Virus record (IMG/VR): IMGVR_UViG_3300027847_001698
DNA length: 64,000 nt
Reading direction: 5' to 3' (one strand)
From: a virus
Taxonomy: Duplodnaviria; Caudoviricetes
A model generated the notes under the pieces. That model was not told where the DNA came from and made no database searches. It saw only the letters and a list, made by a program, of their open reading frames with translations. Positions 19,341 to 59,665 of this stretch are shown here, piece after piece. Position numbers and translations under genes: made by a program. Position 1 is the first letter of the stretch, and each line of letters opens with the position of its first letter.

Positions 19341-19937
19341 CTAGTCCTTGATTAAGGACAAAAACTCAGTTCTAGTCTGAGGTTGATTTTTAAATTTTCC
19401 TTTCATAGCTGAGGTTATCATTGAAGCATTTTGCTTCTTGACACCTCTACATATCATACAGAAATGCTGTGCTTCCATTATTACTCCGACACCATCTGGC
19501 TTTAAATACATGTCCATGGTCTCGGCAATGTCAACAGTCATTTTTTCCTGAATTTGTAATCTACTGGCAAATATATCAACAAGTCTTGCCATCTTAGATA
19601 ATCCTAATACTTTTCCGTTTGGAAGATAACCTATATGACATACCCCACTAAACGGTAGCATATGATGCTCACATATTGAAGTAAAATCAATATTTTTACA
19701 CATTACTATCTCGTCAGCGAGTTCTCCCTCACCTAAACCTTCTTGGAAGAATGTAGATAACACTGTAGAAATATCATGATTGTATCCAGCATACAATTCT
19801 ATCCATGATTTTACAACCCTGAATGGGGTATCAATCAATCCTTCTCTTGTTGGATTATCTCCAATAGATGCAAGAATTGATTTAACATTATCCATTGCTC
19901 CTGGAAACTTTGCTTCTACTTCTTCTTTAGTTATCAT
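19341..19937 (-). CDS. folE: GTP cyclohydrolase I
   Basis: REGLIDTPFRV, SICEHHMLPF, GLSKMARLV, RLQIQE, HFCMICRGV. Confidence 0.97.
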   Translation of the reverse strand: MITKEEVEAKFPGAMDNVKSILASIGDNPTREGLIDTPFRVVKSWIELYAGYNHDISTVLSTFFQEGLGEGELADEIVMCKNIDFTSICEHHMLPFSGVCHIGYLPNGKVLGLSKMARLVDIFASRLQIQEKMTVDIAETMDMYLKPDGVGVIMEAQHFCMICRGVKKQNASMITSAMKGKFKNQPQTRTEFLSLIKD

Positions 19938-22900
19938 TATAATTCCTCTTTTATTTCGTAGTCTAATCCCATAGTCTTTAATTCTGATTGAAATAATCTG
20001 ATTGACTGACTTACGTCATCATCATTTTCATCCAATTTCATATCATCATTTTGGATCATTTTTGAGATAGTAGCATTTCTCTTTTTGATTGAATCCGATT
20101 TAGTGGTAAGAAACTCCCACAAATTAGATTCGGCTCCATGACCTGCTACTGCCCAAACTTCCATTTCTCCTAATCTTTGTCCACCCTTTCTATTCTTGCC
20201 ATCAAGCGGTTGACATGTTTTAGATGAATATGGTCCAACTCCTCTATGGGCTATTTTATCCTTTGATATATGATTCATCTTTATAAAATATTGATAACCT
20301 ACTGCAATCTCATTGATTATATTCTGTTCAAAATAAGATGGATCCTTATTGTGTTCATCATCCCCATAAGGATCATAACACGGATACTCCATTCTGGTTC
20401 CAGTATAATCCATTGCCTCTGATAATTTATCAACTGGGGTTGATTCATACGGAGGCTGAATAACATAGAACGAATCAATATGATTGACAATATACTCTAC
20501 TGATACTGCTTCTAAAAAGAGTTTCATTTGATGAGTATACTCTTTATTTTTAGTACTATCAATAATCTTTATATAGTTTAAAATGAATTCTTTAATTTCT
20601 TCTTCTTCTTCTTTATCTTCGAACTTCTTAACAATAATGTTTCTCATATCTTGAACGGACATTGCCATATGCAACTCAAAGAGCTGCCCAATATTCATTC
20701 TTGAAATCACACCTAATGGGTTCAGTACAACATCTGCACTTTGACCATTTTCTAATCTAGGCATTTCATGTTCTGGAACTATCTTTGAAATGATTCCCTT
20801 GTTTCCATGCCTGTTCCCAATTTTATCACCAACTTCAATTGGTCGTTTATACATTGCTGTTATTTCGAATCTAATCCCATCAATAGATCCACCTTTTACT
20901 TTATACGTCCCTCTCTTCTTCTCAGTGTTATCAATTGCAATTGATTCCAAGAAGTGACCTAACTGATCTTGACTAAGATACGTAGATAGGTTATCAATCA
21001 TACTAGTCCGATCTTTATTCTTTTGTGCTATCAATGATGTCACGAATGTATCATATTGTGGAAACTCTTTATTCCACTTGTTAGCAAAAAGTTTTACATC
21101 AGTGATAACACAATCTTCAGTTACCACCTTTTCAAACGGTTCATCAAATATCATATCCAGACTATCATTAATACCAGTCAATGTCTTTATCTTGGCATAT
21201 ATGTCACCTTTAGTCAAAACATCTCCAATATTAGGAATTCCCTTATATGCAGTTTCATCATCTCCAAGATTCAGTAAAAGCTTATTTGGGGGAACTTCAA
21301 ATGTCAAGTCTAAATAATGAACTGATGTCAATTCATTGTCTTTAACCAATCTATCAGATATTACTATAGCATCTTCAAAGTTATAACCATGCCATATAGT
21401 AACAGCAGTCAATAAGTTTTTACCAACAGTAAGTCTACCTTGTTTCAAATAATTACTTTCTGCAATCATTTGATCCTTCTTGAATGTATGACCTATATCA
21501 AAATAAACATGATAAAAATCATATATAGACAAGAATAACTTTTTGTAACCAATATTAAACGCTTGACATTTCTTGTTATCAAATTGAACAACTATGACAC
21601 TATCATCCTTGAATACCACAGTACCATCTCTAGAAGCGACAAAGCAGAATGAGGTATACTTGGTATACATTCCCTCCACTCCAGATTGTACTAGTGGTAC
21701 ATCGAAGTTTTCTAACATAATAGCATGACGTTGTTGGGAACTAGACATTTGTAATCTAGTTGGATCATCATGTTCTAAAAACGGAACATGTGATATGGCA
21801 ATTGAATTTCTGCAATCACCTTCCCCTTTATTAAACGTCAAATCATTTCCAAGCTGTATTGTTGGTGTCAAATATTGAACTGTTCCACAATTTTCTCTAT
21901 CCCCTGTATCCGCAGGACATACATGACTCTTCATTGAAGGATGTATATCTCTTAGGTATGGAGGAACATTTCCCTTTTCAAATCCACCTGGCCCAGACAA
22001 TGATAACCTAGTTAACATTGCTAACTCTGATAATGGGTTGATTGAAAAGTCAAACTGTACAATTGCAGACTGATTTATATTGTTTAGTATAACTTTAGAA
22101 TTATTCCGAAATCTATTCTTCTTAGATTGTCTCAATGAAACAATCATCTGGTAGAAGTCTCTAGCCAGATGAGAGTAAACTAATTGTTCAGAAAATCTAA
22201 TTCGTTTATTTGAATAGTCTAAATCGTCATTATCCCAATCTCCTAATGAGCTAATCAATTCCTCTAATACATTTGGTGTGGTGAGGAATTCCTTAGTGAA
22301 AATATCTACCTCAGATATTAGAAGAACGTTATTAACAATATCAACGTCCTCTTTTCTATTAAAGTACTGAGATAACAATCTCTTCTTGCTTGAAGGAGAG
22401 TCAATCAAATCTTTAATATCTTGTGCCAAATCGTAATCAATAGTAACATTGGTAGATAACGAATCTTCCTTTGTTATACCAAATCTATCCTTAATCTTAT
22501 CTTCTCCCAAATAAGCATAGACAAGATAACAAAACGGAACTTCCTTACCAAACAGAGTAACATAGTAAAAGTAAGGTCGTCTAAGACGTTGTTTCTTAGT
22601 TAAAGTAAAATTATGAATATTGGTCCTGAGTTTAATTATATCATTTCTTCGAATCAAAGGTCTATCAAACAATTGAAAGATCGAAACTTTTTTGTTTCCA
22701 CCAATAAAGAAATGATTATCTACAAGCCAAGGAATTTCATATTCTAAATCTAACGTCTTATTATCACCATGAACCATCGAAATTTTCAATATTCGAGATA
22801 TTGTTTGTTTTAATTCAGAGCGGTCAACTTTTTCTGGTCGTTCAACAGAAATAGAACTAACTCGAATACCATACTGTTCGCCACATTGCAGCATCTTAGT

Positions 22901-22996
22901 TATATTAGAAACAAGACTGTTTTCCCAGTCTTTCTGTCTAAGATCAAATATATTATGTTTACTTAATATATAATCAGGTACACATAGATTTAACAT
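19937..22996 (-). CDS. rpoB: Multisubunit RNA polymerase beta-like subunit, set 1 (putative non-virion)
   Basis: RDIHPS...CPADT, LEHDDPTRLQMSSSQQRHA, GYNFEDAIVIS, GDKIGNRHGNKGII, SRMNIGQ, GGQRLGEME. Confidence 0.93.
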   Translation of the reverse strand: MLNLCVPDYILSKHNIFDLRQKDWENSLVSNITKMLQCGEQYGIRVSSISVERPEKVDRSELKQTISRILKISMVHGDNKTLDLEYEIPWLVDNHFFIGGNKKVSIFQLFDRPLIRRNDIIKLRTNIHNFTLTKKQRLRRPYFYYVTLFGKEVPFCYLVYAYLGEDKIKDRFGITKEDSLSTNVTIDYDLAQDIKDLIDSPSSKKRLLSQYFNRKEDVDIVNNVLLISEVDIFTKEFLTTPNVLEELISSLGDWDNDDLDYSNKRIRFSEQLVYSHLARDFYQMIVSLRQSKKNRFRNNSKVILNNINQSAIVQFDFSINPLSELAMLTRLSLSGPGGFEKGNVPPYLRDIHPSMKSHVCPADTGDRENCGTVQYLTPTIQLGNDLTFNKGEGDCRNSIAISHVPFLEHDDPTRLQMSSSQQRHAIMLENFDVPLVQSGVEGMYTKYTSFCFVASRDGTVVFKDDSVIVVQFDNKKCQAFNIGYKKLFLSIYDFYHVYFDIGHTFKKDQMIAESNYLKQGRLTVGKNLLTAVTIWHGYNFEDAIVISDRLVKDNELTSVHYLDLTFEVPPNKLLLNLGDDETAYKGIPNIGDVLTKGDIYAKIKTLTGINDSLDMIFDEPFEKVVTEDCVITDVKLFANKWNKEFPQYDTFVTSLIAQKNKDRTSMIDNLSTYLSQDQLGHFLESIAIDNTEKKRGTYKVKGGSIDGIRFEITAMYKRPIEVGDKIGNRHGNKGIISKIVPEHEMPRLENGQSADVVLNPLGVISRMNIGQLFELHMAMSVQDMRNIIVKKFEDKEEEEEIKEFILNYIKIIDSTKNKEYTHQMKLFLEAVSVEYIVNHIDSFYVIQPPYESTPVDKLSEAMDYTGTRMEYPCYDPYGDDEHNKDPSYFEQNIINEIAVGYQYFIKMNHISKDKIAHRGVGPYSSKTCQPLDGKNRKGGQRLGEMEVWAVAGHGAESNLWEFLTTKSDSIKKRNATISKMIQNDDMKLDENDDDVSQSIRLFQSELKTMGLDYEIKEEL

Positions 22997-25749
22997 TCTA
23001 TTTCCGCCACCGGTTTATCATTTGTCATAATTTTTTCGAGAATTCCTGATGATTCCCCATCTCCAGAAATTATTCCATCTATCAAATATGATTTTGGTTT
23101 GCTGAATGCAAGTGCAAGAAGCCATGATTCCCTAGATGGGATCGACTCAATACTAACCATTTCATAATCTGTTATATCTCTTTCCGGATTAACTCTCCAT
23201 CTCATTTTCCCATTACGCATCATTTGAGAGACTATGCACTCATAATGAACCAATAGGACTAATTTATAAGCCGAGTATACACCGAATAGCTTCATAAGAG
23301 AATCGTAATAAGAATTCTTTTCACTTGCATGAAATACTTTCTTTACACGACTCAAATCATTTACAATATCTTGTTGTTGAGAAGCGTCTCCAGTTGATTT
23401 CTTTGCTGCACCTGATGTATGAAACGTTCTTAACACTAACTGGGTTGATACTTCTCCCATTGCTTGTGCTGCAATAATGCCAATGTATTTAGAATGTAAA
23501 TACTTATGACTTGACCCATAACATGTTTGACACACGCCATGGTCTTCACAAAACAACGGAGATCGAACATGTACTAATTGTCCCAGAAATGAATGATAGT
23601 TACCATATGTAATTTCAACTAATCCATCATCTGTTACACTATACCGTCCTATTAGAGACTTTGCTAATTTCAATCCTCCATTTTCCTTCTCGGGAATATT
23701 AATTGCAAGAGTATCTACTGTACCACAATCTTCGTTTTTACCCAATTCAAGATTAACAGAACAATACACCAATTTTCTAGTTAAGTATCCAGAATCTCCA
23801 GTGTTAAGTGCTGTATCTAATAATCCTTTTCTTGAACCATAGCAAGAGATGAAAAAATCATCTCTAGTCAATCCACCAATTAGATTACTCTTAATTGGTG
23901 TTTCAATGATCTTCCCTGCAAAGTTAGAAACAAATCCTCTACACAGCACAATCTGGTTCGCTTGATCCCATGATCCTCTTGAACCCGAATCGATGAATAG
24001 GGAATAAGGGAATGCTTCTCGTACCTTCTCTTGTATTTCTGTTGATTGAATCTTAGAGAATTTATCACCCCACTCTAATTCAGGATCATCCATTATATCG
24101 GACACTATTGTATCAGCGCCTTTTAATAACATATTCTTTAATGACATAGTACAACCAAATCGAGATGTAGACTTAAATCCTAACACCTTTATATCGTCTA
24201 AAATATCACACACTTGATCAGAGTTTCTAGTTCTAGCCAAATCATCCAACAAAACTCTCAACAGTTTTTTATCAATTACTTCATTGATGAATGGATAATC
24301 TGGCAATATGCTATTGAATTCAACTCTTCCTTCGTATGTATCAATGCCATCTGCTATCACCTTTTTAGATTCGTCTTCTTTGGTTAAGAGATATAATCCT
24401 AAAATTATATCCTGATTAACACCAAGAATAAGACTTCCAGTAGTTGGACAGATCAGATTGTTCTTTATAGATAACTTCTCTTTGCATTCTGCCGTGGTTT
24501 CTTCTGTCAACGGTCTATATATTGCCATTTGATCTCCATCAAAATCTGCATTATATGGCTCGCATACCATCGGATGTATTTTAATTACATTGTCAGTATT
24601 GATTAATACATCAAATGACAATATTCCCATTCTATGTAACGTTGGTTGTCTATTAAGAATAACGGATGTACCCTCACAACAGTTCTTTACAACATCTAAT
24701 AATGAGAGATCTTTAATTTTTATACATGAATCAATATGATCTATTGCTGAATCATATCGTTTGAATGTTCTCTTCTCTAGTAATTTGTTTGCTAGTTCCA
24801 ATTTATACAATTCAAGTGCAAGCACATAAGGTATAGAGCATTGATTTAATCTCAAACTAGGTTCAGGTGCAATAACTGCTCTCCCTGAAAAATCAACTCT
24901 CTTGCCCAAAATCGATCCTCTGATCAATCCTGTTTTCTTACTCAACTTCTTGAATATAAAATCATAAAGAGACGTTACATGTCGTTGAAGATTTCTAAAT
25001 GTGGCTTCCCGTATTCCTGCAACCGCAGCAGTTTCTAAATGGTCGTCCTTCATTAAAATCGAGAAATTCAAGATAGTTGTTAAATATCTATTCATCTCAT
25101 CTCGCATTTGAGCATCCTTTGTCTTAGACACTGGTCTAAACTCAGGTGGTAAGATAATTATATTAGACATGTAAAATTTAGACAAGTGAGTCTCAACTAT
25201 TTTCCACATCGCATCTTTATCTTTCTTTCTATCACACTCAAACTTTACGAGATCGTAAACTCCATCAACACCAATAAACACAGGTTTATCATCTGGTAAT
25301 GTTGGAAGTTCCTCTTCATCTGATTCCCTCTCTTTGAATATTCGTTCAACTAATACATAACTAGCCAACTCTTCATCAAAATAATATGCATAAATCTTTT
25401 CATTAAAGAACAGATTCTCTATCATGTCCCTCATTTTTGTCTTTCCTGCCCTAATAATTAATTGATACATAATAGGGTTTAGTATTGGAAAGGGTAACAC
25501 TATTTTTGCAAATCTTTTTCGTCTCTCATTAGAATATGTAATGTCTACATCACATGTTCCACATTTATCTCCAATTCTAGATCTTCCCCAATACGTTTTA
25601 CAACCACACCATGTAGTTTTGACTGGTCCGAATATCTTTTCACTGAAAAGACCTTCTGGGTGAAATCCGTGCTTTGAATAAATTTTAGAACTTGATACTT
25701 GGGGTATACCCTCGCAGAATTCATCTACGTTAAAGAAATCTAATTTCAC
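22990..25749 (-). CDS. rpoC: Multisubunit RNA polymerase beta'-like subunit, set 1
   Basis: N-terminal Zn ribbon CGC...CGTC, LGKRVDFSGRAVI, NRQPTLH, catalytic YNADFDGDQMA, TGDSGYLTRKL, TQLVLRTFHTSG; GTG start. Confidence 0.95.
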   Translation of the reverse strand: MKLDFFNVDEFCEGIPQVSSSKIYSKHGFHPEGLFSEKIFGPVKTTWCGCKTYWGRSRIGDKCGTCDVDITYSNERRKRFAKIVLPFPILNPIMYQLIIRAGKTKMRDMIENLFFNEKIYAYYFDEELASYVLVERIFKERESDEEELPTLPDDKPVFIGVDGVYDLVKFECDRKKDKDAMWKIVETHLSKFYMSNIIILPPEFRPVSKTKDAQMRDEMNRYLTTILNFSILMKDDHLETAAVAGIREATFRNLQRHVTSLYDFIFKKLSKKTGLIRGSILGKRVDFSGRAVIAPEPSLRLNQCSIPYVLALELYKLELANKLLEKRTFKRYDSAIDHIDSCIKIKDLSLLDVVKNCCEGTSVILNRQPTLHRMGILSFDVLINTDNVIKIHPMVCEPYNADFDGDQMAIYRPLTEETTAECKEKLSIKNNLICPTTGSLILGVNQDIILGLYLLTKEDESKKVIADGIDTYEGRVEFNSILPDYPFINEVIDKKLLRVLLDDLARTRNSDQVCDILDDIKVLGFKSTSRFGCTMSLKNMLLKGADTIVSDIMDDPELEWGDKFSKIQSTEIQEKVREAFPYSLFIDSGSRGSWDQANQIVLCRGFVSNFAGKIIETPIKSNLIGGLTRDDFFISCYGSRKGLLDTALNTGDSGYLTRKLVYCSVNLELGKNEDCGTVDTLAINIPEKENGGLKLAKSLIGRYSVTDDGLVEITYGNYHSFLGQLVHVRSPLFCEDHGVCQTCYGSSHKYLHSKYIGIIAAQAMGEVSTQLVLRTFHTSGAAKKSTGDASQQQDIVNDLSRVKKVFHASEKNSYYDSLMKLFGVYSAYKLVLLVHYECIVSQMMRNGKMRWRVNPERDITDYEMVSIESIPSRESWLLALAFSKPKSYLIDGIISGDGESSGILEKIMTNDKPVAEIEC

Positions 25750-25763
25750 GTCTAGTTCCTAAT

Positions 25764-26327
25764 TTATGAAGTTGATACACTAAATGATATTGAATTTATC
25801 TTATCTGCAATGATACCGTTAATGCTTTCTTTTAAATCTGAAGTTCTATTAGCTAGTGTGGCGTTTATAGCTGGAGCTAATGTATTATCGAATTCTTGTT
25901 TAATAAGTCTAATTAAATTTTCATCACAATATCGTTCAATTACATCAGTTATTATTGAATGATCTCTTTTAATAACTGCTTCAACTCCTTCCATGATAAC
26001 AGTAGATAGAATATCATTAGTTAACATGTTAGTAACTGAAACGTCTGCACATAGCATATCAAGATCACCATACTTCTCAACACTTTTAAACTTCCACCCT
26101 TTAGTCTGTCTATCATAACTCATTCGGCTATTGTACTTCGCAAACTGTTTCTTAAACTCCTCAATTCCAGTAATACCATAATCCTGTTCTAAGTCTGTAG
26201 ATATAATATGTAACTCTTTTAAGGTAAAACTATCCTGATTATCAAATTCTTCCGTGGCAGTTATAACATCGTTTATTAATGTTTCTATGTTATTAACTAC
26301 AGGAACTGAATTAATTTCATCTGACAT
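25764..26327 (-). CDS. Hypothetical acidic helical protein
   Basis: 187-aa ORF with upstream AAAGGAGAA. Confidence 0.7.
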   Translation of the reverse strand: MSDEINSVPVVNNIETLINDVITATEEFDNQDSFTLKELHIISTDLEQDYGITGIEEFKKQFAKYNSRMSYDRQTKGWKFKSVEKYGDLDMLCADVSVTNMLTNDILSTVIMEGVEAVIKRDHSIITDVIERYCDENLIRLIKQEFDNTLAPAINATLANRTSDLKESINGIIADKINSISFSVSTS

Positions 26328-27029
26328 TTATTTCTCCTTTAGTATATGTTTAAGAGTTTCAAAATGCTTATTATGCTCATATGGATTATCCATATTTACA
26401 TATCCTAACATCATCTTAGCTATATTTAAAGAATCCGGAGTTAAACACATTCGCTTAATAGCGGAATCCATGCAAAATTTATTATTTAGTGGACTTAAAT
26501 TGGGATGTACACCTGTACAATATAAGCCCCCTCTTAATGTTTTGTCAATAGAAATCTTAAACTCTGTGATTCCATAACCTAACTGCCTTAATTCATCTGG
26601 GTTTGTCCTGATTATTTTTCCATTGTACAGTATCGAATTAATCGGAATATAATCAACCCATATTATCCATTTATTATTAACAAGATATCCTTGTTTTAAA
26701 ATTTCATTTATGGCTTGACATCCTTCAGTGGTAGCGAAATAGGTTAATCTCTTTACATCTGCCATTATCCTAGTCAAACTTGAAGCCAATGAAACGTGTG
26801 CCTTAACTTTACGTGATACTATAAATTTTCTAATGTCCCTTAATACATCAGATAAATTGATTTGAATATCGCCTATTATAATCAACCCTGTCCTATCTTT
26901 TGATAATCTATATCCCGATTTTTGTTTATTTATTAAACATACTGAATACATATTATCTTCATCATAATGTTCCCAATTATTAATATCTGATAACGTTAAT
27001 AATTTTGATACTTCATCTAATATGGTCAC
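26328..27029 (-). CDS. Prokaryotic E2/UBC-like domain protein (module 2)
   Basis: HPNLSPLNNKFC (HPN...C E2 signature) followed by MMLGYVNMDNPY; aligns by eye with the E2 domain of 33916..36039. Confidence 0.6.
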   Translation of the reverse strand: MTILDEVSKLLTLSDINNWEHYDEDNMYSVCLINKQKSGYRLSKDRTGLIIIGDIQINLSDVLRDIRKFIVSRKVKAHVSLASSLTRIMADVKRLTYFATTEGCQAINEILKQGYLVNNKWIIWVDYIPINSILYNGKIIRTNPDELRQLGYGITEFKISIDKTLRGGLYCTGVHPNLSPLNNKFCMDSAIKRMCLTPDSLNIAKMMLGYVNMDNPYEHNKHFETLKHILKEK

Positions 27030-27304
27030 GCCGTTCCTGTTAATGGATTAACCGTGACCTCTAAATTGTTATCAAAATCTTTTCTGAACGTCAAAGCAAA
27101 CTTCTTTTGTGGGAATAATGTACATTCTGTTTTGACTTCAGCTTGTACTGTTTTAATAAAATCTAATATTGAAAATCTGGACCCGTCTACCTGTTTAGGT
27201 CTTTTAGAGGAATCAGATCTAATTGATATTTTCATATGTGGATTTTCATATATAAATCCACTTAATGCGTTTTCATTTTCTACTTGGTTAATTAATCGAT
27301 TCAT
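27026..27304 (-). CDS. Small protein between E1-like and E2-like genes; candidate beta-grasp/Ubl
   Basis: 92 aa; strand-strand-helix-strand pattern and C-terminal tail LEVTVNPLTGTA. The fold is inferred only. Confidence 0.3.
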   Translation of the reverse strand: MNRLINQVENENALSGFIYENPHMKISIRSDSSKRPKQVDGSRFSILDFIKTVQAEVKTECTLFPQKKFALTFRKDFDNNLEVTVNPLTGTA

Positions 27305-28181: not shown

Positions 28182-28190
28182 TAATATTCC

Positions 28191-28670: not shown

Positions 28671-28717
28671 TAATAACCTCCTCTCATATATAGATATATA
28701 TAGAAATAGCTTTCCAT

Positions 28718-33909: not shown

Positions 33910-33915
33910 TATAAA

Positions 33916-36039: not shown

Positions 36040-36046
36040 ATTAAAT

Positions 36047-36080
36047 AAAAAAGGTGGCTAGAGATTTATCCCTAACCACC
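36047..36080 (-). terminator. Intrinsic terminator between the Ubl-fusion gene and the E2 gene
   Basis: Minus strand GGTGGTTAGGGA-TAAA-TCTCTAGCCACC-TTTTTTATTT: 12-bp stem (two G-U pairs), 4-nt loop, U tract. Confidence 0.85.
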
Positions 36081-36101
36081 CTCCTCTATTTATATAATTG
36101 C

Positions 36102-48572: not shown

Positions 48573-48575
48573 AAA

Positions 48576-49907: not shown

Positions 49908-49922
49908 TTTATATCTCGTTAG

Positions 49923-52900
49923 TTATCCTATATCAGTCTCTAACATCATTCCACGCATATAAGTATCAAATAGATCCTTAGTGGGAGATGTTCTTGGGGT
50001 TCTGTATTCTGCACTTCCTGTCTGAATAATATCAGCTACAATTTGATCTTTAGTTACATGATCATCAGCTAAAGGTCCAAAGAATTCTCTTAAAATATTA
50101 GTTGCTCCATGATTTATAATAGAATAACTATCCATCTCACCAATTCTCTGTCCTCCACCCTTACCAGACATAGCCTGTTTAGTAACAGAGCTTACCATTC
50201 CAGTTGATCTTGCTGACAATTTAATTCCACTTTGTTGTTCAAGTTTCTTGTAGTATAGGTATCCTACAGCAATATCAGTGGATGTACTTGTTCCATACTC
50301 TTTAATTTTTAATTTATATCCTTCCTTTGCACCAACTAACCGTAAGGCAGCTCTAATATGTATAATAGTTGGCTCTTGGAATGGAGGAACAATGATAGGA
50401 ATAAATCCACCTCTATCTACAACAGTTTTTAACCATTTTTGATATGTAGCATTGGTCATTGAATTGACTGCAGTAACCACTTGTCTAGAATAGGACTTTC
50501 CTTTAGTTCCATCTAATACGCCTAACACTTTAGTAAGTAGAGCAATAGTCTTATCATTTTTTCGTGGTCCATAACCAATTATTTTAGTAGCCATGAATTT
50601 AGAAATTAAGGATAAATATAATTCTTTAATGGTTGAGGGGTTCATTCTATTTACAATAGCAATAGGATTAAGAATGATATCTACATGTTCACCCCAAGGA
50701 GTTAGTGGCATATTCTCTTCTTTTTCAATTTTAGCAATAACGCCCTTTCCACCATAGTTGTTAGTGATCTTGTCTCCAAGTTCAGCAACCTGAGTTTCTT
50801 CTATTTTAAATCTGATTAATACTCCAGAAAACTGCTGTTTCTCAGAACCAACTCTAGCAGTAAATTTCTTTGGTGTTGCGTGACCTTGTGCTTCCTCATA
50901 TTTTTCTTTATATGCAGCATGTGCCTTCTTTAATGCAGGAAATTTACTTATAGGAGAATTTGCATAAACCTCTAGGGAAATAATCTTTCCACCTGGAGAT
51001 TTTGTTATTAGCTGACCTTGCTGTATTTCATCTTCTTCGAGACCAACAACATCTTCCACTTCTTTAGAAATTCTCATTAGAAGTGGTTCGCCCCGCTTAG
51101 TCAATACTCCTTCTTGATTAATAAAACTAACTCTGTCTGTTGGTTTTACCAAAATCTCAATTTCATGATATGCTTCAGATGTTAATTTTGTTTTTGCAAT
51201 TTTGTCTGAAACAATATATCCATCCTCATATGAATAACCTTTCCATGTCATAACTGCACACAATAAATTAGTTCCTACAGAAATAACGCCATCTTGAATA
51301 TGTTTCCCTTCCGCAACAATCTGATTCTTTTTAACCTTCTGATTCTCAACCACAATAGGCTTGAAGTAATTTAATGCACTTTGTCCCTGACCAGCTCTTA
51401 ATATCTTAGTAGCAAGAGATATAGTTTGAAGTCTACCAGATTTTAGTTTTATAACAATAGCATTAGTGGTAATACTTCTAACTATACCATCACTAATTGC
51501 TTTCTTAACATAGTTATCAGATAACATAGATGTTAATACGCTTTCATATCCAGTTTGAACAATAGGAGCTTCTTCTCCATTTATAGGAATAGCCTGCCGA
51601 CCTTGGCTTCCTGCGAACATAACTCTAGCTCCATCACAAGATCCGATAAATGGAATCATAACTGAATTTACCCCTAAGATTCCTGACTTCTCATCTCTGC
51701 CATCAGTCTTATCAACAAAGGCACCTCTAGAATTAGTTATAGCAGCACCAACAGAAAGCTGATTAATTATTCCTACATTTTCACCTTCTGGTGTATCCAT
51801 TGAATCTATATTGCCATAATATGTAGGATGAATATTTCTAGCTTGTTTTGTTATTGCATTAGAATCTGGTATACCACCTTCACCAATAGGCTTAAGTCTA
51901 GTCAAGCATGATAATTCTTCAGTAGGATTAATATTCTCTAAATCATCCATCAGTTTAGAGTTAACAATTCTCTTTATAGCTTCTGTTACATCTAACTTGT
52001 ATTCAGCATCTTTAAACCCTGAAATTCTACGCTCTCTGTAATCTGTATATGACCCCAAAATCAATTTCTGAATTTGGTGGGCAAATACTTCTGATGTTCT
52101 AATTCTTTGCTTAGATATATCATTTCGGTCATCAACTCTTTCCTTTACTAACTCTTCACAAATATATAAAACAATTTGGGGATATGTAAATGGTAGAAGT
52201 TTTGATTTCAGTACTTGAGTAGCAACAGGTTCCATTATATTCTCTAATACTTGCTTTACTTTCCATGTAGAGTTTCTATTACCTGTTATTTTGATTAATG
52301 CCTGTTCAAATGTTTTTTGATCCTCTAAGTTATCTTCTGTAAAAATATTTGGAGATTCTGCAAATGAATTTAATAAAATTCTTGCGGCATCTGTTTTATA
52401 ATCTACAACAATAAAGTTACCATCACTCAATATCAGATAATTGATTCCTTCAGGTGGTTCTGTGTCAACTATTTTATATTTAACACCAAACAATCGACAT
52501 GTCTTCTTAAATCCAATGTAATAACCCATGAGAACAATTAATGGGAGTTTATATCCCCCTATCAATATCTGAAAGTATTGCTTTTTAACGGTCTTCTTGA
52601 GGTAAATAGTAGAAACGGCATATAGCGTTTCTAACTTGGCTTGTCCCTTTTTAACAAAGAAAATAGGATCTAATATGATCTGATATGTAAGATACTTCTT
52701 CTTTCCATTTATTAAAAATGTACCATCACCCATTAGACGGGGTATTTGGATTTCTACTTCATGTTTATTTTTCTTGTCATCTTGTAATACAACAATATAC
52801 CTATCATATAAAGAAGGATTCAAGTCACCAGGATCAGATGGGATAGGTTCCTTTTTCATACTGAATAGTTTCAATGGATAATCTTTTTTCTCCAACAATT

Positions 52901-54122
52901 TAAATGAATTTAATAAATCCTTTTCAAATGAGGTAGCAAAATCTAATTGACGTTTATTTAATATATGACTAGGATCTTTATGTTCAACTAACCCATGTAT
53001 ATCAACTTTAGAATGAATCAAATCTCTATTATTGTTTTGTGGTGGATCTCGTTTAACCACATCAGATAACAATTCCTTCTTAACCTGATCCAACATATAC
53101 TTTCTTCGTTCAGGAACAACTGTTTCAACTGTTTCATTTGATTTTTTAAGATCTCCAGATACACTAAACAAAATAGATTTTGTTGCTAGAGTTGTCGCTG
53201 CATTCTTATCAATACTTCTAGATAAAATACTTCTCCTAACTTGAGGTGGCATTGCTTTCAGGTAATTTGCAACTGCATATCTAATAGTATCTCTTTCTTC
53301 TTCTGTTTTTTCTATAATCGGATCAACTGTTACTGTATCTTCTGTATCTGAAATAATTTCATCAGTCGTCTTGTTATTGGGTAACTTAACAACCATGTCA
53401 TCATTAGGAACTATATCAATTTTACCAACTGCCAAATCAGCAGCAGCCATTGCTTCATCTTGACTTATAAAATCAGTTTTAGTCGATATAAGGGACTTTA
53501 AGATATTTCTAATTCTTGTATAGGGGAGACTATCATTTTCATTCCCCAACATTGAATATTTAGTTATTCCGTTTTTGATGATCGCTATTAGGAAATATTC
53601 AAAAGGATTTTCACCTTCAGTCTTTAACATTTCTAGAATTGGCCAAGCTCGTCTTTTAGTTATTCCTCTTGGTAATTCCTCATCTAGATTCACAACATAC
53701 AGTAAGACTTTCTTTCGGCCTTCATGTAAGCCTCTAAGACCAGATAAATATTCCTTTATCCTTGAACTAACAACGTTTCTTCTGTAATTTCCTTTTTTGA
53801 ATTTTACATCAATAGCATCCAAGTATCTAGTTAAATCAATATAAATATTATCTGCTTGACGTTGTAAATTTCTAGCTACAATTAATCCCAGCTTTCTATA
53901 AGGAAGAATTGCCTTACCATTAATCATAACTCTAGGATATCTAGACGCTATAGGAACAATCTTTCTGACATGTGTTTTCTTTATCTTAAGATGTTCATAT
54001 GTTGTTATAAAATCCACATTCTCTGGATAGAAAAAAATGGAATATGAACTAGCCCGTGAATTATCAATTCCTATTTGGGCAGTAGAAAACGGGAATAATT
54101 TTAACCGATCAATAAATATCAT
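49923..54122 (-). CDS. rpoB: Multisubunit RNA polymerase beta-like subunit, set 2 (putative virion), with long N-terminal extension
   Basis: RNIHPTYYG...DTPEGENVG, CDGARVMFAGSQGRQA, GYSYEDG, GDKITNNYGGKGVI, NRMNP, GQRIGEMD. Confidence 0.9.
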   Translation of the reverse strand: MIFIDRLKLFPFSTAQIGIDNSRASSYSIFFYPENVDFITTYEHLKIKKTHVRKIVPIASRYPRVMINGKAILPYRKLGLIVARNLQRQADNIYIDLTRYLDAIDVKFKKGNYRRNVVSSRIKEYLSGLRGLHEGRKKVLLYVVNLDEELPRGITKRRAWPILEMLKTEGENPFEYFLIAIIKNGITKYSMLGNENDSLPYTRIRNILKSLISTKTDFISQDEAMAAADLAVGKIDIVPNDDMVVKLPNNKTTDEIISDTEDTVTVDPIIEKTEEERDTIRYAVANYLKAMPPQVRRSILSRSIDKNAATTLATKSILFSVSGDLKKSNETVETVVPERRKYMLDQVKKELLSDVVKRDPPQNNNRDLIHSKVDIHGLVEHKDPSHILNKRQLDFATSFEKDLLNSFKLLEKKDYPLKLFSMKKEPIPSDPGDLNPSLYDRYIVVLQDDKKNKHEVEIQIPRLMGDGTFLINGKKKYLTYQIILDPIFFVKKGQAKLETLYAVSTIYLKKTVKKQYFQILIGGYKLPLIVLMGYYIGFKKTCRLFGVKYKIVDTEPPEGINYLILSDGNFIVVDYKTDAARILLNSFAESPNIFTEDNLEDQKTFEQALIKITGNRNSTWKVKQVLENIMEPVATQVLKSKLLPFTYPQIVLYICEELVKERVDDRNDISKQRIRTSEVFAHQIQKLILGSYTDYRERRISGFKDAEYKLDVTEAIKRIVNSKLMDDLENINPTEELSCLTRLKPIGEGGIPDSNAITKQARNIHPTYYGNIDSMDTPEGENVGIINQLSVGAAITNSRGAFVDKTDGRDEKSGILGVNSVMIPFIGSCDGARVMFAGSQGRQAIPINGEEAPIVQTGYESVLTSMLSDNYVKKAISDGIVRSITTNAIVIKLKSGRLQTISLATKILRAGQGQSALNYFKPIVVENQKVKKNQIVAEGKHIQDGVISVGTNLLCAVMTWKGYSYEDGYIVSDKIAKTKLTSEAYHEIEILVKPTDRVSFINQEGVLTKRGEPLLMRISKEVEDVVGLEEDEIQQGQLITKSPGGKIISLEVYANSPISKFPALKKAHAAYKEKYEEAQGHATPKKFTARVGSEKQQFSGVLIRFKIEETQVAELGDKITNNYGGKGVIAKIEKEENMPLTPWGEHVDIILNPIAIVNRMNPSTIKELYLSLISKFMATKIIGYGPRKNDKTIALLTKVLGVLDGTKGKSYSRQVVTAVNSMTNATYQKWLKTVVDRGGFIPIIVPPFQEPTIIHIRAALRLVGAKEGYKLKIKEYGTSTSTDIAVGYLYYKKLEQQSGIKLSARSTGMVSSVTKQAMSGKGGGQRIGEMDSYSIINHGATNILREFFGPLADDHVTKDQIVADIIQTGSAEYRTPRTSPTKDLFDTYMRGMMLETDIG

Positions 54123-54125
54123 GTC

Positions 54126-54551
54126 TTACTTCAATTTCTTTAATGTAACAAGTCCTTTCTTTTTACTAGCAGTAAGACTCCATTTGCCTTCCAATATCTC
54201 AGACGTAAATACGAAACGTTCTGATCCTGCATTCACATTTCCTTTCAGATTATAGCTTCCCTGTCTTGTCTTTCCTGCAAACTTAATCCGTTGTTTAAAT
54301 GTTTGAGGTTTAGAAGCTGGCATTATACGGCCCATAATCTCATCCCCCTTTTTTAACAGTTCAATTGGTGTTTGAGATATGAGCATATATGACGCCCATC
54401 CGTCTGCAAGATTGGTTCCATCTGAAACTGAATTAAAATATTTAAAATGTAAAGCTAACTCTTTCCCACTATTTGAAAAGGATATTGCTAATATATTATC
54501 CATCTTTGCTTCAAACAGAATACGTTTAATGTAAAAAAATTTATTATCCAT
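54126..54551 (-). CDS. Hypothetical protein, putative virion component
   Basis: 141 aa; N-terminal ILFEAK. Confidence 0.65.
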   Translation of the reverse strand: MDNKFFYIKRILFEAKMDNILAISFSNSGKELALHFKYFNSVSDGTNLADGWASYMLISQTPIELLKKGDEIMGRIMPASKPQTFKQRIKFAGKTRQGSYNLKGNVNAGSERFVFTSEILEGKWSLTASKKKGLVTLKKLK

Positions 54552-54553
54552 GG

Positions 54554-55417
54554 TTAATGTCCAATTTTCTTGTTTTTCATTGCAGATATAATTTTATCTG
54601 CTGAAATATTAAATATGCCCGCCACCTTTGTTGCTACATTTTTTGGTTTATCAATTTTTTCATTTTTCATTGATCCTCTGGCTTCTTCTATTCTTTTTCT
54701 CATATCGGGATGAGTTTTGAATATTTCAGTAAACTTGTTAACTGCGACCATAAATTTAGACTTGGATTTATTTAAATTCATTTTGTATGCATTAGCTAGA
54801 ATTTTAAATGCTTGAATTAACTCCTTTCCGTATCCCATCTTCACAGCAAAATCATCAGCTCTATACTCAAATCGTCTTGACATATAATTAGGAACTGTGG
54901 CTACTAATAGAGCAGTGACAAACATAAAAATACCTACTATTTTAAGGTCTTTGATATTCCCGGACTTCATGAGATCCAGTGGCTTGCCGATCTCTAAATT
55001 AAGTGACACTAACACCTGAACAAGAATAAAAGCACTAGATCTCTTAATAACATCATTATTAGTAGAATGTGCCACTTCGTGTAATAATATCGATATTGCT
55101 TGTCTATCATTAGTTAATTTTACAAGACTATCGGTTATGTACAAATTTTTACCTCCAAATGTAAACGCATTTGGGATTGGCTTTTTTCCACCACTCATGT
55201 CATCTATTTCATGAACGATCCATCCACCTTCCTTCTTTGCCTTCTTCATAATATCATTAAGAAGTTTAGTAAACTTCTTATGAATTTTAGTAGAATTTGC
55301 TAACTTAGCAGCTCGGAGCATACACACCGTAATCATAATAACTACAAAAACAGGAGTTGCCATGAAGGTTGGACTATCCATTAACCCTTCTTTGACTTCT
55401 AAATATTTTTTATTCAT
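54554..55417 (-). CDS. M48 (HtpX/Ste24-like) zinc metalloprotease
   Basis: PNAFTFG, ILLHEVAH, SRRFEYRADDFA, FKTHP; transmembrane segments. Confidence 0.88.
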   Translation of the reverse strand: MNKKYLEVKEGLMDSPTFMATPVFVVIMITVCMLRAAKLANSTKIHKKFTKLLNDIMKKAKKEGGWIVHEIDDMSGGKKPIPNAFTFGGKNLYITDSLVKLTNDRQAISILLHEVAHSTNNDVIKRSSAFILVQVLVSLNLEIGKPLDLMKSGNIKDLKIVGIFMFVTALLVATVPNYMSRRFEYRADDFAVKMGYGKELIQAFKILANAYKMNLNKSKSKFMVAVNKFTEIFKTHPDMRKRIEEARGSMKNEKIDKPKNVATKVAGIFNISADKIISAMKNKKIGH

Positions 55418-55492
55418 AATATTAAATATTCCTTATTTATTATTTTGTTCTGAGATTTAAGGTTTTATAAATATGAACCATAACCAACTGTC

Positions 55493-58400
55493 TTAAAGTG
55501 TACCATTTACCATTTGTTCCAATATGCTTTCACTCTGGTCTCTATCATAAGTGAGACCAGTCATAACTGCTAATCCCGGATTTTCAAAACTAAGAGCAGA
55601 TAACCAACTTTCCAATGAAGGTATCTTTTTAAGACTTACTACTATTGCATTATAATCTTTGTTTAATCTTGCTGGGAATGACGGGTTAGATTTATCTCGT
55701 AAAAGTTGACTTGCGAGAATTTCAAAATGAACCATATCTGCACCTGTCATTGGGCCATACTGATCATAAATTTTCATACAAAAGTGATCGGCTGATTTCC
55801 ATGGTTTCTTACCAGACAGTAAATGATTAATTATTCTAACCTTATCTGAAAAATCAGATGTAGAAGCAGGACATGTAAATACTGCTGAGTTATCAGAAAA
55901 CGGAATAGTGATTATATTACCATCATCTTGTACTTGGCGTCCCTTCAATGGAATATGAGTATGAAAATCCAATGCACAATCAATCACAACTCTATCTTTT
56001 GTAACTATCTCAAAATAACCATACTCTAATTCAAATGTATCACCAACTTTCTTAATATCCTTTTTCGGATCTAAAAATTGATTTCTATTAATGATAATAC
56101 TTCCAGATGTTTTAGTCACTAAGTCATTGATCTTTTGTGAAAACATTTTAGAGAAATACTGACTAGTCTTAACATCCATATTTGCGGTTAATGGCTTTAT
56201 GATATCCACAGCAGTAACAGATATCGCTCCACCACTATGAAATGTATTATGATTTTGAATTCCTCCCAACATATAATCTTTAGTATTGGTTTGGATATCG
56301 TATACAGGATAATCCCATTTCCAAATATCTTTTACTGTAGATACTACATCAAAGCCACGAACAGGCAAGTCTCTTCTTATTTTTATTGGTAGAATTTTAC
56401 CATTTGCTTTTAGTTTTTCACTACTAAGATTCTCATTTTTTAGAAATCGTATATCAATTGCAAAATTAGGTCTTTTTTGTTTACACCCCTTAGATCCTTC
56501 TTTATCTGGAGGGACAATACATGTATTACATTTATAACCTAACTTATCACATATAGCTTTAATCTGCTGAACCAGATAATAACTACAAGTGTACACCCTG
56601 CAACACGTACTAGCTGTATTAAATACAGTCCCGTCTCCATCAATCATTCCAGATAGAAAATCTTTTAACCATGATTTACTAAAATCTATAAAATTCTCTG
56701 GGAGTCTCTTTTCCCATGCATACGAACCATAAACAACATCATTAACATATCTATCATTATCTACAATAGTAATATATTTATCATAAACTCTAATATCATT
56801 ATATTGTTTTTTCAATTCTGATATTATTCTAGGCTTTATATAATTATCATGTTGGGAGATTATGTTCCCTTTAGTATTTCTGCCTTCTCCCGCTTTACAT
56901 CCTTCGGCACAATATATTCCAGCAACATAACCACTTACACCAGGAACTACTCTCTTTTTATTATTAGATGCAATGGTCGAATCTATCCATATGGCATCAT
57001 GTTTTGTTAACTCAGATGCTTCTATCTCAATTAATTCTTCATCGGTTATTGTAAATGGTGTTCGGGTAGATTGTGTTTCATTATATAATCTATCCCCAAT
57101 AAGCCTACACTTGTCATTAGAATATTTTGAATGAATAGAAGTTTTCTTGATCCATAATGGATGATTGGATTGGCACACCAACGTATGGCCACTTTTTGTA
57201 GTTATGAACATCATCTTTTCAGTAGGATCATGTTTTTGTATTGTAAGTGCCTTAACCTCTCCTTCCTTTCCTTGTACGGTAAAAGTAGATGGTAATTCTT
57301 TTGTTTCTTTTCCATCAATAATATCAATATCAGATGATACTGAATTCCATAAATCCTTAAATGCTATAAGGTTAGAATTATGATGAACTAATCCATCTGA
57401 ACATTTCATAATCATCTGGGTTCCACGTTCACCAAAGATCTGACCAGCCAATACTCCAACGTAAGGAGTTCTATTTCTTTCTAATAGATCACCATAACAA
57501 GTTTTGCATATTTTAGGAGATATACAATACAGTGGAGACTTTAAAGAAATGACTTTACCCATAGCTTTACTGGGATCTAGTTTAATAGGATTACCAACTT
57601 TATTAAGATAGTATCGGCCTTCTAATCGTCTTGCTATATCTGGAGTTACTTTTAATTGGAATCCCCGTTGGGTCTTACAATTAAAAATAGTAGGATCAGC
57701 TTCTACCCGTTGAAGTGCGAATACTAACTGTCTGCTCAAATATCCAGTATCAGCAGTATTCAATACACGATCAGCAATACCACGTCTACTTCCTGCTCCA
57801 CTCATAAAGAAATCTTTACTGGTCATTCCTTCTGCATATGACTGGGCAATTGGCTCTTGGATATTCCCTTCATTATCAGAAATTAATCCTTTAGCTACAA
57901 GTATCTGTCTAGCTTGATCATAACCACCTTTTAGAACTCCAGCTTTTCCTAACGTCCCAATATTGCCATCTTTCTTTTCTAAATGAGCACCAATATCAAC
58001 AGTGGATTGTTGAATTATTCTATCAGCCTCTTGTGGTGATTTTCCTACTAATTGTTTTTTAGCATCGACAATAGATTTTGGAATTTCAAGGTCTTCAAGG
58101 CCAAATGAAGGAGAACCAATTGTTCCATACTTATAAGATATTTTTAATATCTTATCAGCCCAATCAACATATTTTTCTCTTCCATATGTTATAAAGTATT
58201 CATTAGCTATATTGTTTAGCTTCTTCTGATTCACTTGTTCATTTATAAATGTATGACCATCAGGAAAGATATCATTAAACATAATCCTTCCAACTGTGGT
58301 ATCAAGTGTTCCATACTTTACTTTATCATTAATAGGCAATCCTTTTAACTGTCCAGGTCTAGTTACCCTTACTGCCGCCTTTCTAGACTTCGAATCCTTA

Positions 58401-59665
58401 GTAAGCAAATAGATACCAATTGCACTATCTTTATCAAACGAATCACTAATTTGATTTATTGAGTCCTTTGATGTGGTGACCATCATCTTGTCCTTTGCTT
58501 CCTCAATAGCCTGTCTAGTTATTGGGACATAGACTGCCATTTGATCCCCATCAAAGTCTGCATTATAAGCTGAACATTTCATGGGATTAATTCTAATGGT
58601 ATTTCCGTCTACTAATACAGGTTTAAATGCTTGCACCGATTCAGCATGGAGACTAGGATCTCTTTTTGCTAATACAATTTTATCTTTGATTGCATTATTT
58701 GTTGAAACTACTAATATGTCATATAACTCTTGAGATATTTCATCATGCTTTGATATTGCAATGAATAGTCTTCTTAGACTTAATGCAGATAATTTACTTC
58801 CGTCAAAACGTTCTAATGCATCAGAAAGCTGTTCTTTTGGTATATTTCCACTATTCAATAAATCAAATATAATAAATGGTTCAAATAGTTTAACAAGAAG
58901 CCTTAATGGTATTCCTAATTCGTCTGCACGTAGTTCGGATGCAGCTCCAGATATAACTGCCCTAGCTGTAAAATCTACTCTCTTACCCAATAAATCACTT
59001 CTAAGTAATCCTTTCTTCTTAGAGACTTTACTTGTAAGATAATTGTATAATTCGAGTACTAACTCATGCATTCTAAATGCTAATACATCATATACGGGTC
59101 CTGATGTTTGTGTTCTTAATTGTAATGACAATCTAAGAATTTTAAGGTAGTAATCATTTAAAGGATTAACTGTAATATCCCCAGTATCAGTGATCTCAAG
59201 TTGTCTATAATCTGGAGGAATAATGATACACTTATCAGTAAATGCATGTCCTTTCTTTGTATAGAAATCAACCATTCCAATTAAATCAGCTCTCGATTTT
59301 GAATCTGCTGAAAATTTTATTTTTGACCAATTATCAACCACTGAAGACATTCCCGTTATCTCACCATCCTCATCAAGAATCAATTCACCGTTCTGTAGAG
59401 TAAATGTTTTCTCTCCTGACATTGCAGTTATAACAGATCTCTTTAATCTCCTTATAGTACCAAATAACGCTGGATGTAAAACATTACAATTTAAATCAAT
59501 GAAAGAATATATTTTTCTTCTATCTGAAGTATCAACTGCCCCAAAGATCTTTTCAGAGAAAAATCCTTCGGGGTGAAATGTTGTAGTTTTTCCTACGAAA
59601 TATTCAGTAGATGTAACAGGAACTAATTTAGATGTCTCCTTATCTATATTCAACAATTTTAGCAT
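55493..59665 (-). CDS. rpoC: Multisubunit RNA polymerase beta'-like subunit, set 2, intein-containing
   Basis: LGKRVDFTARAVI, KRDPSLH, catalytic YNADFDGDQMA, TADTGYLSRQL, GTQMIMK//TFHSGG split by an intein. Confidence 0.94.
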   Translation of the reverse strand: MLKLLNIDKETSKLVPVTSTEYFVGKTTTFHPEGFFSEKIFGAVDTSDRRKIYSFIDLNCNVLHPALFGTIRRLKRSVITAMSGEKTFTLQNGELILDEDGEITGMSSVVDNWSKIKFSADSKSRADLIGMVDFYTKKGHAFTDKCIIIPPDYRQLEITDTGDITVNPLNDYYLKILRLSLQLRTQTSGPVYDVLAFRMHELVLELYNYLTSKVSKKKGLLRSDLLGKRVDFTARAVISGAASELRADELGIPLRLLVKLFEPFIIFDLLNSGNIPKEQLSDALERFDGSKLSALSLRRLFIAISKHDEISQELYDILVVSTNNAIKDKIVLAKRDPSLHAESVQAFKPVLVDGNTIRINPMKCSAYNADFDGDQMAVYVPITRQAIEEAKDKMMVTTSKDSINQISDSFDKDSAIGIYLLTKDSKSRKAAVRVTRPGQLKGLPINDKVKYGTLDTTVGRIMFNDIFPDGHTFINEQVNQKKLNNIANEYFITYGREKYVDWADKILKISYKYGTIGSPSFGLEDLEIPKSIVDAKKQLVGKSPQEADRIIQQSTVDIGAHLEKKDGNIGTLGKAGVLKGGYDQARQILVAKGLISDNEGNIQEPIAQSYAEGMTSKDFFMSGAGSRRGIADRVLNTADTGYLSRQLVFALQRVEADPTIFNCKTQRGFQLKVTPDIARRLEGRYYLNKVGNPIKLDPSKAMGKVISLKSPLYCISPKICKTCYGDLLERNRTPYVGVLAGQIFGERGTQMIMKCSDGLVHHNSNLIAFKDLWNSVSSDIDIIDGKETKELPSTFTVQGKEGEVKALTIQKHDPTEKMMFITTKSGHTLVCQSNHPLWIKKTSIHSKYSNDKCRLIGDRLYNETQSTRTPFTITDEELIEIEASELTKHDAIWIDSTIASNNKKRVVPGVSGYVAGIYCAEGCKAGEGRNTKGNIISQHDNYIKPRIISELKKQYNDIRVYDKYITIVDNDRYVNDVVYGSYAWEKRLPENFIDFSKSWLKDFLSGMIDGDGTVFNTASTCCRVYTCSYYLVQQIKAICDKLGYKCNTCIVPPDKEGSKGCKQKRPNFAIDIRFLKNENLSSEKLKANGKILPIKIRRDLPVRGFDVVSTVKDIWKWDYPVYDIQTNTKDYMLGGIQNHNTFHSGGAISVTAVDIIKPLTANMDVKTSQYFSKMFSQKINDLVTKTSGSIIINRNQFLDPKKDIKKVGDTFELEYGYFEIVTKDRVVIDCALDFHTHIPLKGRQVQDDGNIITIPFSDNSAVFTCPASTSDFSDKVRIINHLLSGKKPWKSADHFCMKIYDQYGPMTGADMVHFEILASQLLRDKSNPSFPARLNKDYNAIVVSLKKIPSLESWLSALSFENPGLAVMTGLTYDRDQSESILEQMVNGTL
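56246..57403 (-). mobile_element. Intein (~386 aa) with LAGLIDADG homing endonuclease, in the beta' trigger loop
   Basis: Starts at Cys (CSDGLVH), ends GIQNHN, +1 residue Thr; VAGIYCAEG and FLSGMIDGDG motifs; YDIQT block F. Confidence 0.92.

Follow-up and report, generated by a model that had tools for sequence, protein, structure and literature searches.

Two unsplit beta'/beta RNA polymerases encoded by an uncultured marine jumbo phage and their likeness to the virion and non-virion polymerases of phiKZ/AR9-type phages

The IMG/VR virus record IMGVR_UViG_3300027847_001698 (Duplodnaviria; Caudoviricetes), 193.5 kb in length and with a CheckV completeness of 61%, comes from an uncultured marine jumbo phage and contains two sets of genes for the large subunits of multisubunit RNA polymerase (RNAP). 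Both sets lie in a stretch of 64,000 nucleotides, bases 57369-121368 of the record, which is the stretch analysed here and is called the window. The best explanation of the sequence is that the phage encodes two independent multisubunit RNAPs, each made of one beta' and one beta polypeptide and predicted to be catalytically competent. We suggest, with a probability of about 0.55, that set 2 corresponds, in unsplit form, to the virion RNAP of phiKZ/AR9-type phages, and set 1, likewise unsplit, to their non-virion RNAP. The packaging of set 2 and the timing of both sets are part of this proposal and are inferred from sequence.

The two beta'/beta gene pairs

Both sets are on the minus strand, which holds nearly all genes of the window. 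The set 1 beta' gene (22990-25749) has a GTG start and encodes an unsplit protein of 919 residues, with Pfam domains Rpb1_2, Rpb1_3 and Rpb1_5 over their cut-offs. The set 1 beta gene (19937-22996) overlaps it by 7 nt and encodes an unsplit protein of 1019 residues, with Rpb2_3, Rpb2_6 and Rpb2_7. Set 2 consists of a beta' precursor gene (55493-59665; 1390 residues), in which the same three Rpb1 domains are over the cut-offs, and an unsplit beta gene (49923-54122; 1399 residues), in which Rpb2_3 and Rpb2_6 are over the cut-offs and Rpb2_7 is under it (23.7 vs 32.1 bits). The NADFDGD motif begins at residue 400 of set 1 beta' and residue 368 of set 2 beta'. The GDK...KG and GGQR.GEM motifs are intact in both beta proteins, and in set 1 they read GDK..RHGNKG and GGQRLGEME. 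The two sets are 26% identical in beta' and 24% identical in beta, and no further beta or beta' genes besides these four were found in the 193.5-kb record. In both sets the gene order is beta'->beta, the reverse of bacterial rpoBC. The Pfam domains and intact catalytic motifs confirm what the initial annotation had reported, namely two beta'/beta pairs, NADFDGD in both beta' proteins and the reversed order. It had also described each subunit as one polypeptide. There is indeed one open reading frame (ORF) for each subunit, but that of set 2 beta' encodes a precursor with an intein of 386 residues.

The earlier observation that no alpha or sigma gene is recognizable holds as well. The Sigma70_r2 and RNA_pol_L (alpha) domains have no match in the 193.5-kb record or in G001, a complete 277-kb relative (277,131 bp) with terminal repeats. 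Sequence searches of the 193.5-kb record (G000) with the Carin-5 sigma factor, the AR9 sigma-like gp148 and phiKZ gp179 gave no match, nor did phmmer with gp68, the fifth, promoter-specificity subunit of phiKZ (gp226 in AR9), which belongs to a fast-evolving family.

Relatives of the phage, numbered G001, G002 and so on, are IMG/VR records gathered via matches to set 1 beta'. IMG/VR contains 291 set 1 beta' relatives, at 40-56% identity. Of the 20 relatives searched, 17, G001 among them, have pairs of both types in an unchanged order; the other three, which have no set 2, are partial records of 27-35% completeness. G001-G003 are collinear over the stretch that reaches from set 2 to set 1 and includes the topoisomerase and SbcCD genes.

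Affinity of each set to one phiKZ-type enzyme

The proteins of both sets were scored against PHROG families whose virion or non-virion identity was established by scanning labelled phiKZ and AR9 subunits against PHROGs. The subunit labels come from the GenBank entries for phiKZ and AR9, and the labelled proteins were used to find the orthologs in SPN3US and Goslar. The virion families are phrog_2986, which contains phiKZ gp180 (virion beta'N, a head protein), phrog_3148, which contains phiKZ gp178 (virion beta, a head protein), and phrog_2962, which contains virion beta'C. The non-virion families are phrog_2987, with phiKZ gp55 (beta'N), phrog_3015, with beta'C, and phrog_3295, with beta C; the phiKZ non-virion subunits behind the families matched by set 1 are gp55, gp71 and gp74. 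For beta'N, set 2 scores 164.7 bits with the virion family and 87.6 bits with the non-virion family, and set 1 scores 73 and 113.4 bits, respectively. For the beta core, the corresponding scores are 191.8 and 133.5 bits for set 2 and 64.5 and 142.5 bits for set 1. With phmmer, set 2 beta' matches phiKZ gp180 at 70 bits and the AR9 virion beta'N at 102 bits. Sequence identity to the phiKZ-type subunits is only 20-30%, and since it is only 20-25% for beta, beta was compared by profiles rather than in a tree.

The N-terminal parts of beta show the same division. By hhalign, the beta N-part of set 2 aligns to virion beta with E 1.5e-17 and that of set 1 with E 4.5e-4, whereas the AR9 non-virion beta N aligns to set 1 with E 1.6e-15 and to set 2 with E 8.1e-9. 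Between the virion and non-virion beta N-parts themselves, profile-profile comparison gives no match.

The initial annotation had noted an N-terminal Zn ribbon in set 1 beta' and the absence of its cysteines from set 2 beta'. The alignment bears this out and shows that a block of about 27 residues is deleted. In set 1 beta' the Zn-binding cysteines are C48, C50, C63 and C66. The CxC...CxxC block is kept in E. coli, S. aureus, Rhizobium phage RHph_TM30, Cobetia phage Carin-5 and the set 1 group, and also in the non-virion beta'N of phiKZ, SPN3US and Goslar (three of the four examined). The gap is common to set 2, four of its relatives and the virion beta'N of phiKZ, SPN3US, Goslar and AR9.

Set 2 is also like the virion enzymes in gene order and in the N-terminus of beta. 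The virion genes of phiKZ (gp180-gp179-gp178), SPN3US (where they are adjacent) and Goslar run beta'N->beta, as in set 2. The N-terminal extension of set 2 beta (53073-54122, minus strand) comprises about 350-380 residues that are missing from set 1 beta; in the alignment, residues 7-14 of set 1 beta match residues 351-384 of set 2 beta. Virion beta has an excess of about 470 residues at the same end. In phage 201phi2-1, the first 275 residues of the virion beta extension are a propeptide that is cleaved off inside the head (PMC5694885). Conservation of the set 2 extension extends to four genomes. Its residues 20-210 make up a conserved alpha/beta domain, with a pLDDT of about 80 in an AlphaFold2 (AF2) model, and are followed by an acidic linker and then a helical region. 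Foldseek found nothing for this fold at E<=0.001. A zeta-toxin/P-loop-like fold was considered and rejected (best VIA Z 7.9, with no Walker A), and the domain has no clear relative.

The initial annotation had proposed phylogeny as a check, and a quick maximum-likelihood (ML) tree of beta'N was computed from 60 rows with LG+C20. In this tree, the four virion beta'N proteins nest in a clade with the set 2-type and intermediate metagenomic sequences, with a support of 95 in the Shimodaira-Hasegawa-like approximate likelihood ratio test (SH-aLRT). The non-virion beta'N clade is outside the set 2-type clade, next to a grade of set 1-type sequences. This placement of the virion proteins is suggestive, not decisive, because the approximately unbiased (AU) tests given below reject neither alternative. 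Carin-5 and RHph_TM30 branch below both window sets. Like set 1, these two phages have an unsplit beta' with the Zn block kept, and Carin-5 also has the order beta'->beta. Unlike the phage studied here, they have one beta' gene per genome, and a sigma factor is annotated directly upstream of beta' in Carin-5; none was found here.

Taken as a system, the two sets resemble those of the phiKZ-type phages (Chimalliviridae) and AR9, which have two paralogous beta/beta' enzymes per genome with no sigma or alpha. Set 2 is like the virion enzyme in the Zn-block deletion, the best beta'N and beta profiles, the gene order and the long beta extension; set 1 is like the non-virion enzyme in the retained Zn block and in its best profile matches. 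RNAP genes invaded by homing elements are a further common feature. However, the phiKZ-type enzymes consist of four to five polypeptides (PMC7598289), whereas each subunit is one gene here. Another difference is that no homolog of gp68, chimallin or the gp75 helicase was found. A search of G000-G003 with chimallin (phiKZ gp54), the shell protein of the nucleus-forming Chimalliviridae, gave no match; this search lacked a positive control, and a strongly diverged homolog may have escaped it. Iyer et al. tie a Rad25-like SF2 helicase to the RNAP genes in phiKZ-type phages (PMC7824862). Two SF2/SNF2-type helicases are encoded in the window, at 36745-38193 and 46656-48572, and phmmer with phiKZ gp75 matched neither.

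Promoter-like motifs, gene surroundings and alternative readings

The motif AGAACAAAwwwwwAA, with the core AGAACAAA, occurs 31 times in the genome, and 18 of these copies are no more than 70 nt upstream of a start on the same strand, where 1.25 copies would be expected (p ~1e-17). It heads tail sheath, baseplate wedge, virion structural and tail-like genes, at a distance of 13-65 nt. In set 2, a copy of AGAACAAA at 55444-55451 (minus strand) is 34 nt upstream of the start of an M48-family peptidase gene and heads the block made up of this gene, a 141-residue ORF and set 2 beta. The set 2 operon of G002, G003 and G004a begins with a small gene, and AGAACAAA is 15-35 nt upstream of it; in G001 it is farther upstream in the gene run leading to set 2. 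The relatives with AGAACAAA before the set 2 operon are only 35-49% identical in protein. No AGAACAAA was found before the set 1 operon in this record. We read AGAACAAA as a late promoter, and we infer which enzyme would read which motif.

Further copies of the motif are at 4093-4100 in the window and at 46804 and 52017 in G000. A 175-residue ORF at 64944-65471 is also preceded by AGAACAAA, and its N-terminus resembles by eye that of an amidase-type endolysin. The AR9 late-promoter pattern AACA-N6-TA was considered as a match and rejected, as it is not kept downstream of the AGAACAAA core when judged by eye.

A second class of motif is found before other genes. A near-palindromic box, aattaATATATATAGA, occurs 50-105 nt upstream of genes and resembles the annotated early promoters of AR9, AAATATATATTAT. 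Two copies of aattaATATATATAGA head the set 1 operon (28687-28704). The box is enriched before genes: with the pattern ATATATAGA, eight of 21 copies are no more than 120 nt upstream of starts, vs 1.45 expected (p 5e-5). A aaTATATATAGA box at 61806-61814 (minus strand) is 50 nt upstream of a gene for 297 residues that opens the run into set 2 beta', and a partial aaTATATATAGA copy at 59691-59698 is 33 nt upstream of set 2 beta' itself. The TATA-like box aattaATATATATAGA is a candidate early or middle promoter. Its other copies are at 33962-33970 in the window and at 35613, 41158, 147350, 174491 and 184091 in G000, and in four cases aattaATATATATAGA is followed 36-44 nt later by AGAACAAA before the same gene. 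In the relatives, the regions upstream of both beta' genes are mostly coding, with no conserved promoter directly in front.

In the mechanism that we propose, set 2 would be made late, from the promoter type common to structural genes, and its beta' would first have to splice out the trigger-loop intein. The set 2 enzyme would then be loaded into the head, injected, and start early transcription in the next host. Set 1 would be made after infection together with the replication genes, and would transcribe the middle and late genes.

Several observations weigh against this assignment. The beta'C segment of set 2 prefers the non-virion family (86 vs 68 bits), as does that of set 1 (112.4 vs 56 bits). 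The non-virion beta'N of AR9 is also without the Zn block, so loss of the block can recur. Neither a single clade of virion and non-virion proteins (p 0.206) nor a single clade of all unsplit genes (p 0.143) is rejected by the AU test. No similarity is detectable between the N-terminal extensions of set 2 beta and gp178, and no T4-like capsid-targeting tag or shared N-terminal peptide was found on set 2 or in the 193.5 kb. The set 1 operon of G001 has a AGAACAAA-like site in front as well, though a weaker one, and set 2 beta' itself is preceded by a TATATAGA-type box, not by AGAACAAA. Finally, set 2 sits among replication genes, not head genes; in the relatives, it is in the collinear stretch with the topoisomerase and SbcCD genes that also includes set 1. 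The initial annotation had already proposed set 2 as the virion and set 1 as the non-virion enzyme. The profiles, the Zn-block deletion and the late-type motif favour this assignment, which is one of comparison, and the AU tests temper it.

The argument from location made in that annotation, that set 2 is found among cargo-like genes, finds no support. The M48 peptidase gene (54554-55417, minus strand; PF01435, E 1.8e-22) and the 141-residue ORF (54126-54551, minus strand) are between set 2 beta' and beta, and an AAA ATPase gene (48576-49907) and the SNF2 helicase gene at 46656-48572 are nearby. In the regions of the relatives that were compared, homologs are absent for all of these and also for the two genes upstream of set 2 beta'; for the M48 peptidase, these regions were those of G001-G005. 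The 141-residue ORF has no Pfam or PHROG match. Conversely, G001-G003 have a small gene in front of set 2 beta' that is without a homolog in this record. The distance between set 2 beta' and beta in G001-G005 is 9-340 nt, apart from about 2.5 kb in G003, where the gap is wide because beta' is split. The set 2 neighbours are variable accessory genes, not a conserved cargo set.

Could both polymerases act only inside the cell, with neither packaged? They would then divide the transcription programme by time or by template, for instance with the early or middle genes left to one and the late genes to the other, and transcription of the first genes would fall to the host RNAP. The location of both sets in one collinear topoisomerase/SbcCD stretch, away from the head genes, fits this explanation, as does the absence of a capsid-targeting tag or recognizable propeptide on set 2, and the two classes of promoter-like motif would fit two specificities without packaging. 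A division by template would be allowed by a 7-deazaguanine pathway (FolE, QueC, QueD-type PTPS, radical SAM), which could give 7-deazaguanine-modified DNA. However, an enzyme made under the structural-gene motif has no obvious late use unless it is carried forward, and set 2 has several features of enzymes that are known as head proteins. In addition, a sigma factor or modifier of the host RNAP was not found. We regard a purely intracellular role for both enzymes as unlikely, while still giving it real weight.

The genes for 7-deazaguanine synthesis are scattered around set 1: FolE (19341-19937), QueC (10434-11357), QueD-type PTPS (38156-38602), a QueE-like radical SAM protein (42754-43806) and a glutamine amidotransferase (12664-13539). 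The phage DNA is probably modified at G. If so, both polymerases would have to read a modified template.

It is also conceivable that sets 1 and 2 arose by duplication within this lineage, in which case set 2 would have lost the Zn block and become virion-like by convergence, and would not be orthologous to the virion RNAP. The two AU results leave room for this, as do the Zn-block loss in the AR9 non-virion beta'N and the non-reciprocal beta'C scores. However, the ML tree separates the two long phiKZ-type branches, with the virion clade nested in the set 2-type sequences, and the profile affinities are reciprocal in three of the four segments compared. Furthermore, the virion and non-virion beta N-parts, which are mutually undetectable, are each linked to one set. 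We therefore consider duplication within the lineage improbable, and prefer the correspondence of set 2 to the virion enzyme and set 1 to the non-virion enzyme.

The conditions that the initial annotation had named as refuting it, a recent capture of a host rpoBC pair or a window that is a chimera of two genomes, have a negligible probability: a provirus label in IMG/VR is the sole point in their favour, and they are excluded by the recurrence of both sets in order in 17 of the 20 related records, along with an identity of about 29% at best to any bacterial beta', the separate bacterial clade in the beta'N tree (SH-aLRT 98), the gene order reversed relative to rpoBC and a GC content of 29-39% in 2-kb windows across the window.

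Other genes around the two sets are as follows. Directly upstream of set 1 beta' is a small, fast-evolving ORF of 187 residues (25764-26327, minus strand). The same position holds an ORF of 74-187 residues in five of five relatives examined, and these small proteins have a common C-terminal motif, h-x-P-x-h-D/N-x-x-h-x-x-R/K. The 187-residue ORF has no Pfam match, and a low-confidence Atlas model gives a weak winged-helix hint. It is a candidate accessory or specificity factor for set 1. In the nearest relatives, G004 (141,546 bp) and G005, the set 1 neighbours are kept, including E1-like and E2-like genes and FolE. Two ubiquitin-like conjugation cassettes are found in the window, at 26328-27851 and 32295-36710, with a ThiF/E1 gene at 33139-33909 and a 707-residue protein with a weak UQ_con match; the first cassette is in the same tight gene run as set 1 beta'/beta and is retained in G004 and G005. 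The 193.5-kb record also encodes a terminase (4123-5844), a portal of the T4 type, type II topoisomerase subunits, SbcCD and a ligase, in addition to the 7-deazaguanine pathway.

The trigger-loop intein, possible gene fission and the origin of split subunits

The set 2 beta' gene contains an insert of 386 residues with a LAGLIDADG endonuclease (56246-57403, minus strand). The insertion site is between the equivalents of R933 and T934 of E. coli beta', in the middle of the trigger loop. The flanking sequence is GERGTQMIMK|C...HN|TFHSGGA, with Cys1, a terminal His-Asn and Thr at the +1 position. Block B reads SNHPLW, and there are two LAGLIDADG-like motifs, GYVAGIYCAEG and LSGMIDGDG. The Pfam matches to Intein_splicing, LAGLIDADG_3 and Hom_end are all under the cut-offs, and there is no real match among PDB sequences. 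The beta' proteins of G001, G002 and G004 have an exact gap where the intein sits, while P0001 has an intein at the identical site, 52% identical in the intein and 57% in the extein. By its sequence, the insert has the features of a class 1 intein, and after the predicted splicing the mature set 2 beta' would be about 1004 residues long.

Inteins are known at conserved sites of RNAP large subunits, for example in archaeal RpoA. The set 2 intein is similar to these in having a Hint domain and a LAGLIDADG endonuclease in a highly conserved catalytic element. In contrast to the archaeal inteins, the host protein element is here the trigger loop of a phage beta'. A literature search found no paper that joins intein, trigger loop and phage RNAP.

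The same region is interrupted repeatedly in related sequences. In P0020 and P0024, the insertion is three residues downstream (TFH|C), and P0015, P0042 and the set 1-type P0071, P0078 and P0101 have insertions of 300-800 residues at the trigger-loop site. This site appears from the alignments to be an intein hot spot across the clade, in both paralog types. In G003, G007, G010, G011 and G018, and probably in P0009, the set 2-type beta' stops about 25 residues after TFH. In G003, where the two pieces span G003:C1:42021-45765, it resumes in a second ORF, and the gap contains ORFs of 90 and 128 residues. In G015, beta' is cut beside NADFDGD. These two-piece beta' genes look like fission at homing-element sites.

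What is the origin of the split subunits of the phiKZ-type enzymes? The split counts as a hallmark in reviews of jumbo-phage RNAPs, which do not decide how the two enzymes originated (PMC7598289, PMC7824862, PMC13282480). Iyer et al. (2021) put forward the multi-piece form as the ancestral state (PMC7824862), and a review from 2026 describes it as unknown whether jumbo phages came by their virion and non-virion RNAPs through duplication or through two acquisitions (PMC13282480). We tentatively propose, at somewhat less than even odds, that the virion/non-virion paralogy predates fragmentation, and that the split subunits would have come from unsplit set 2-like and set 1-like genes broken at conserved sites by inteins and free-standing homing endonuclease genes. 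Possible intermediates in the clade are the inteins at two trigger-loop positions, the beta' cut about 25 residues past TFH and the cut beside NADFDGD. If this is true, the multi-piece architecture is derived and is not a relic of a pre-cellular polymerase, and the 2020 tree discussed next mixed two paralogs.

The phage belongs to the same deep-branching clade as mReC, the multisubunit-RNAP-encoding Caudovirales described by Weinheimer and Aylward (2020), whose unsplit beta and beta' branch apart from the cellular RNAPs (PMC7481178). The supplementary tables of that work name the contigs of G001, G004, G005 and others, and G004 has two entries there, _a and _b, one for each set (PMC7481178). 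In the concatenated RNAP tree (supplementary file 5), set 1-type and set 2-type pairs appear as separate taxa, once from the same contig, and a single 'species' tree would thereby combine two old paralogs (PMC7481178). The main text does not mention two sets, virion or non-virion enzymes, phiKZ or inteins (PMC7481178). The present analysis links each set to one phiKZ-type enzyme; the relatives themselves were already in the mReC supplement. Both paralogs of at least one contig are in the mReC trees from which an acquisition before the age of the last universal common ancestor (LUCA) was argued.

As of 2020, no virion RNAP had been purified (PMC7598289), and two-subunit enzymes would be far easier to reconstitute than those of four to five pieces. 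The unsplit proteins bridge the virion and non-virion beta N-parts, which are not directly alignable, supply outgroups and may show fission in progress. The finding bears on how the two-polymerase system of the phiKZ-type phages arose. Because the clade has both enzymes unsplit, each tied to one phiKZ-type enzyme, the questions of duplication versus acquisition and of an ancestral split both become testable.

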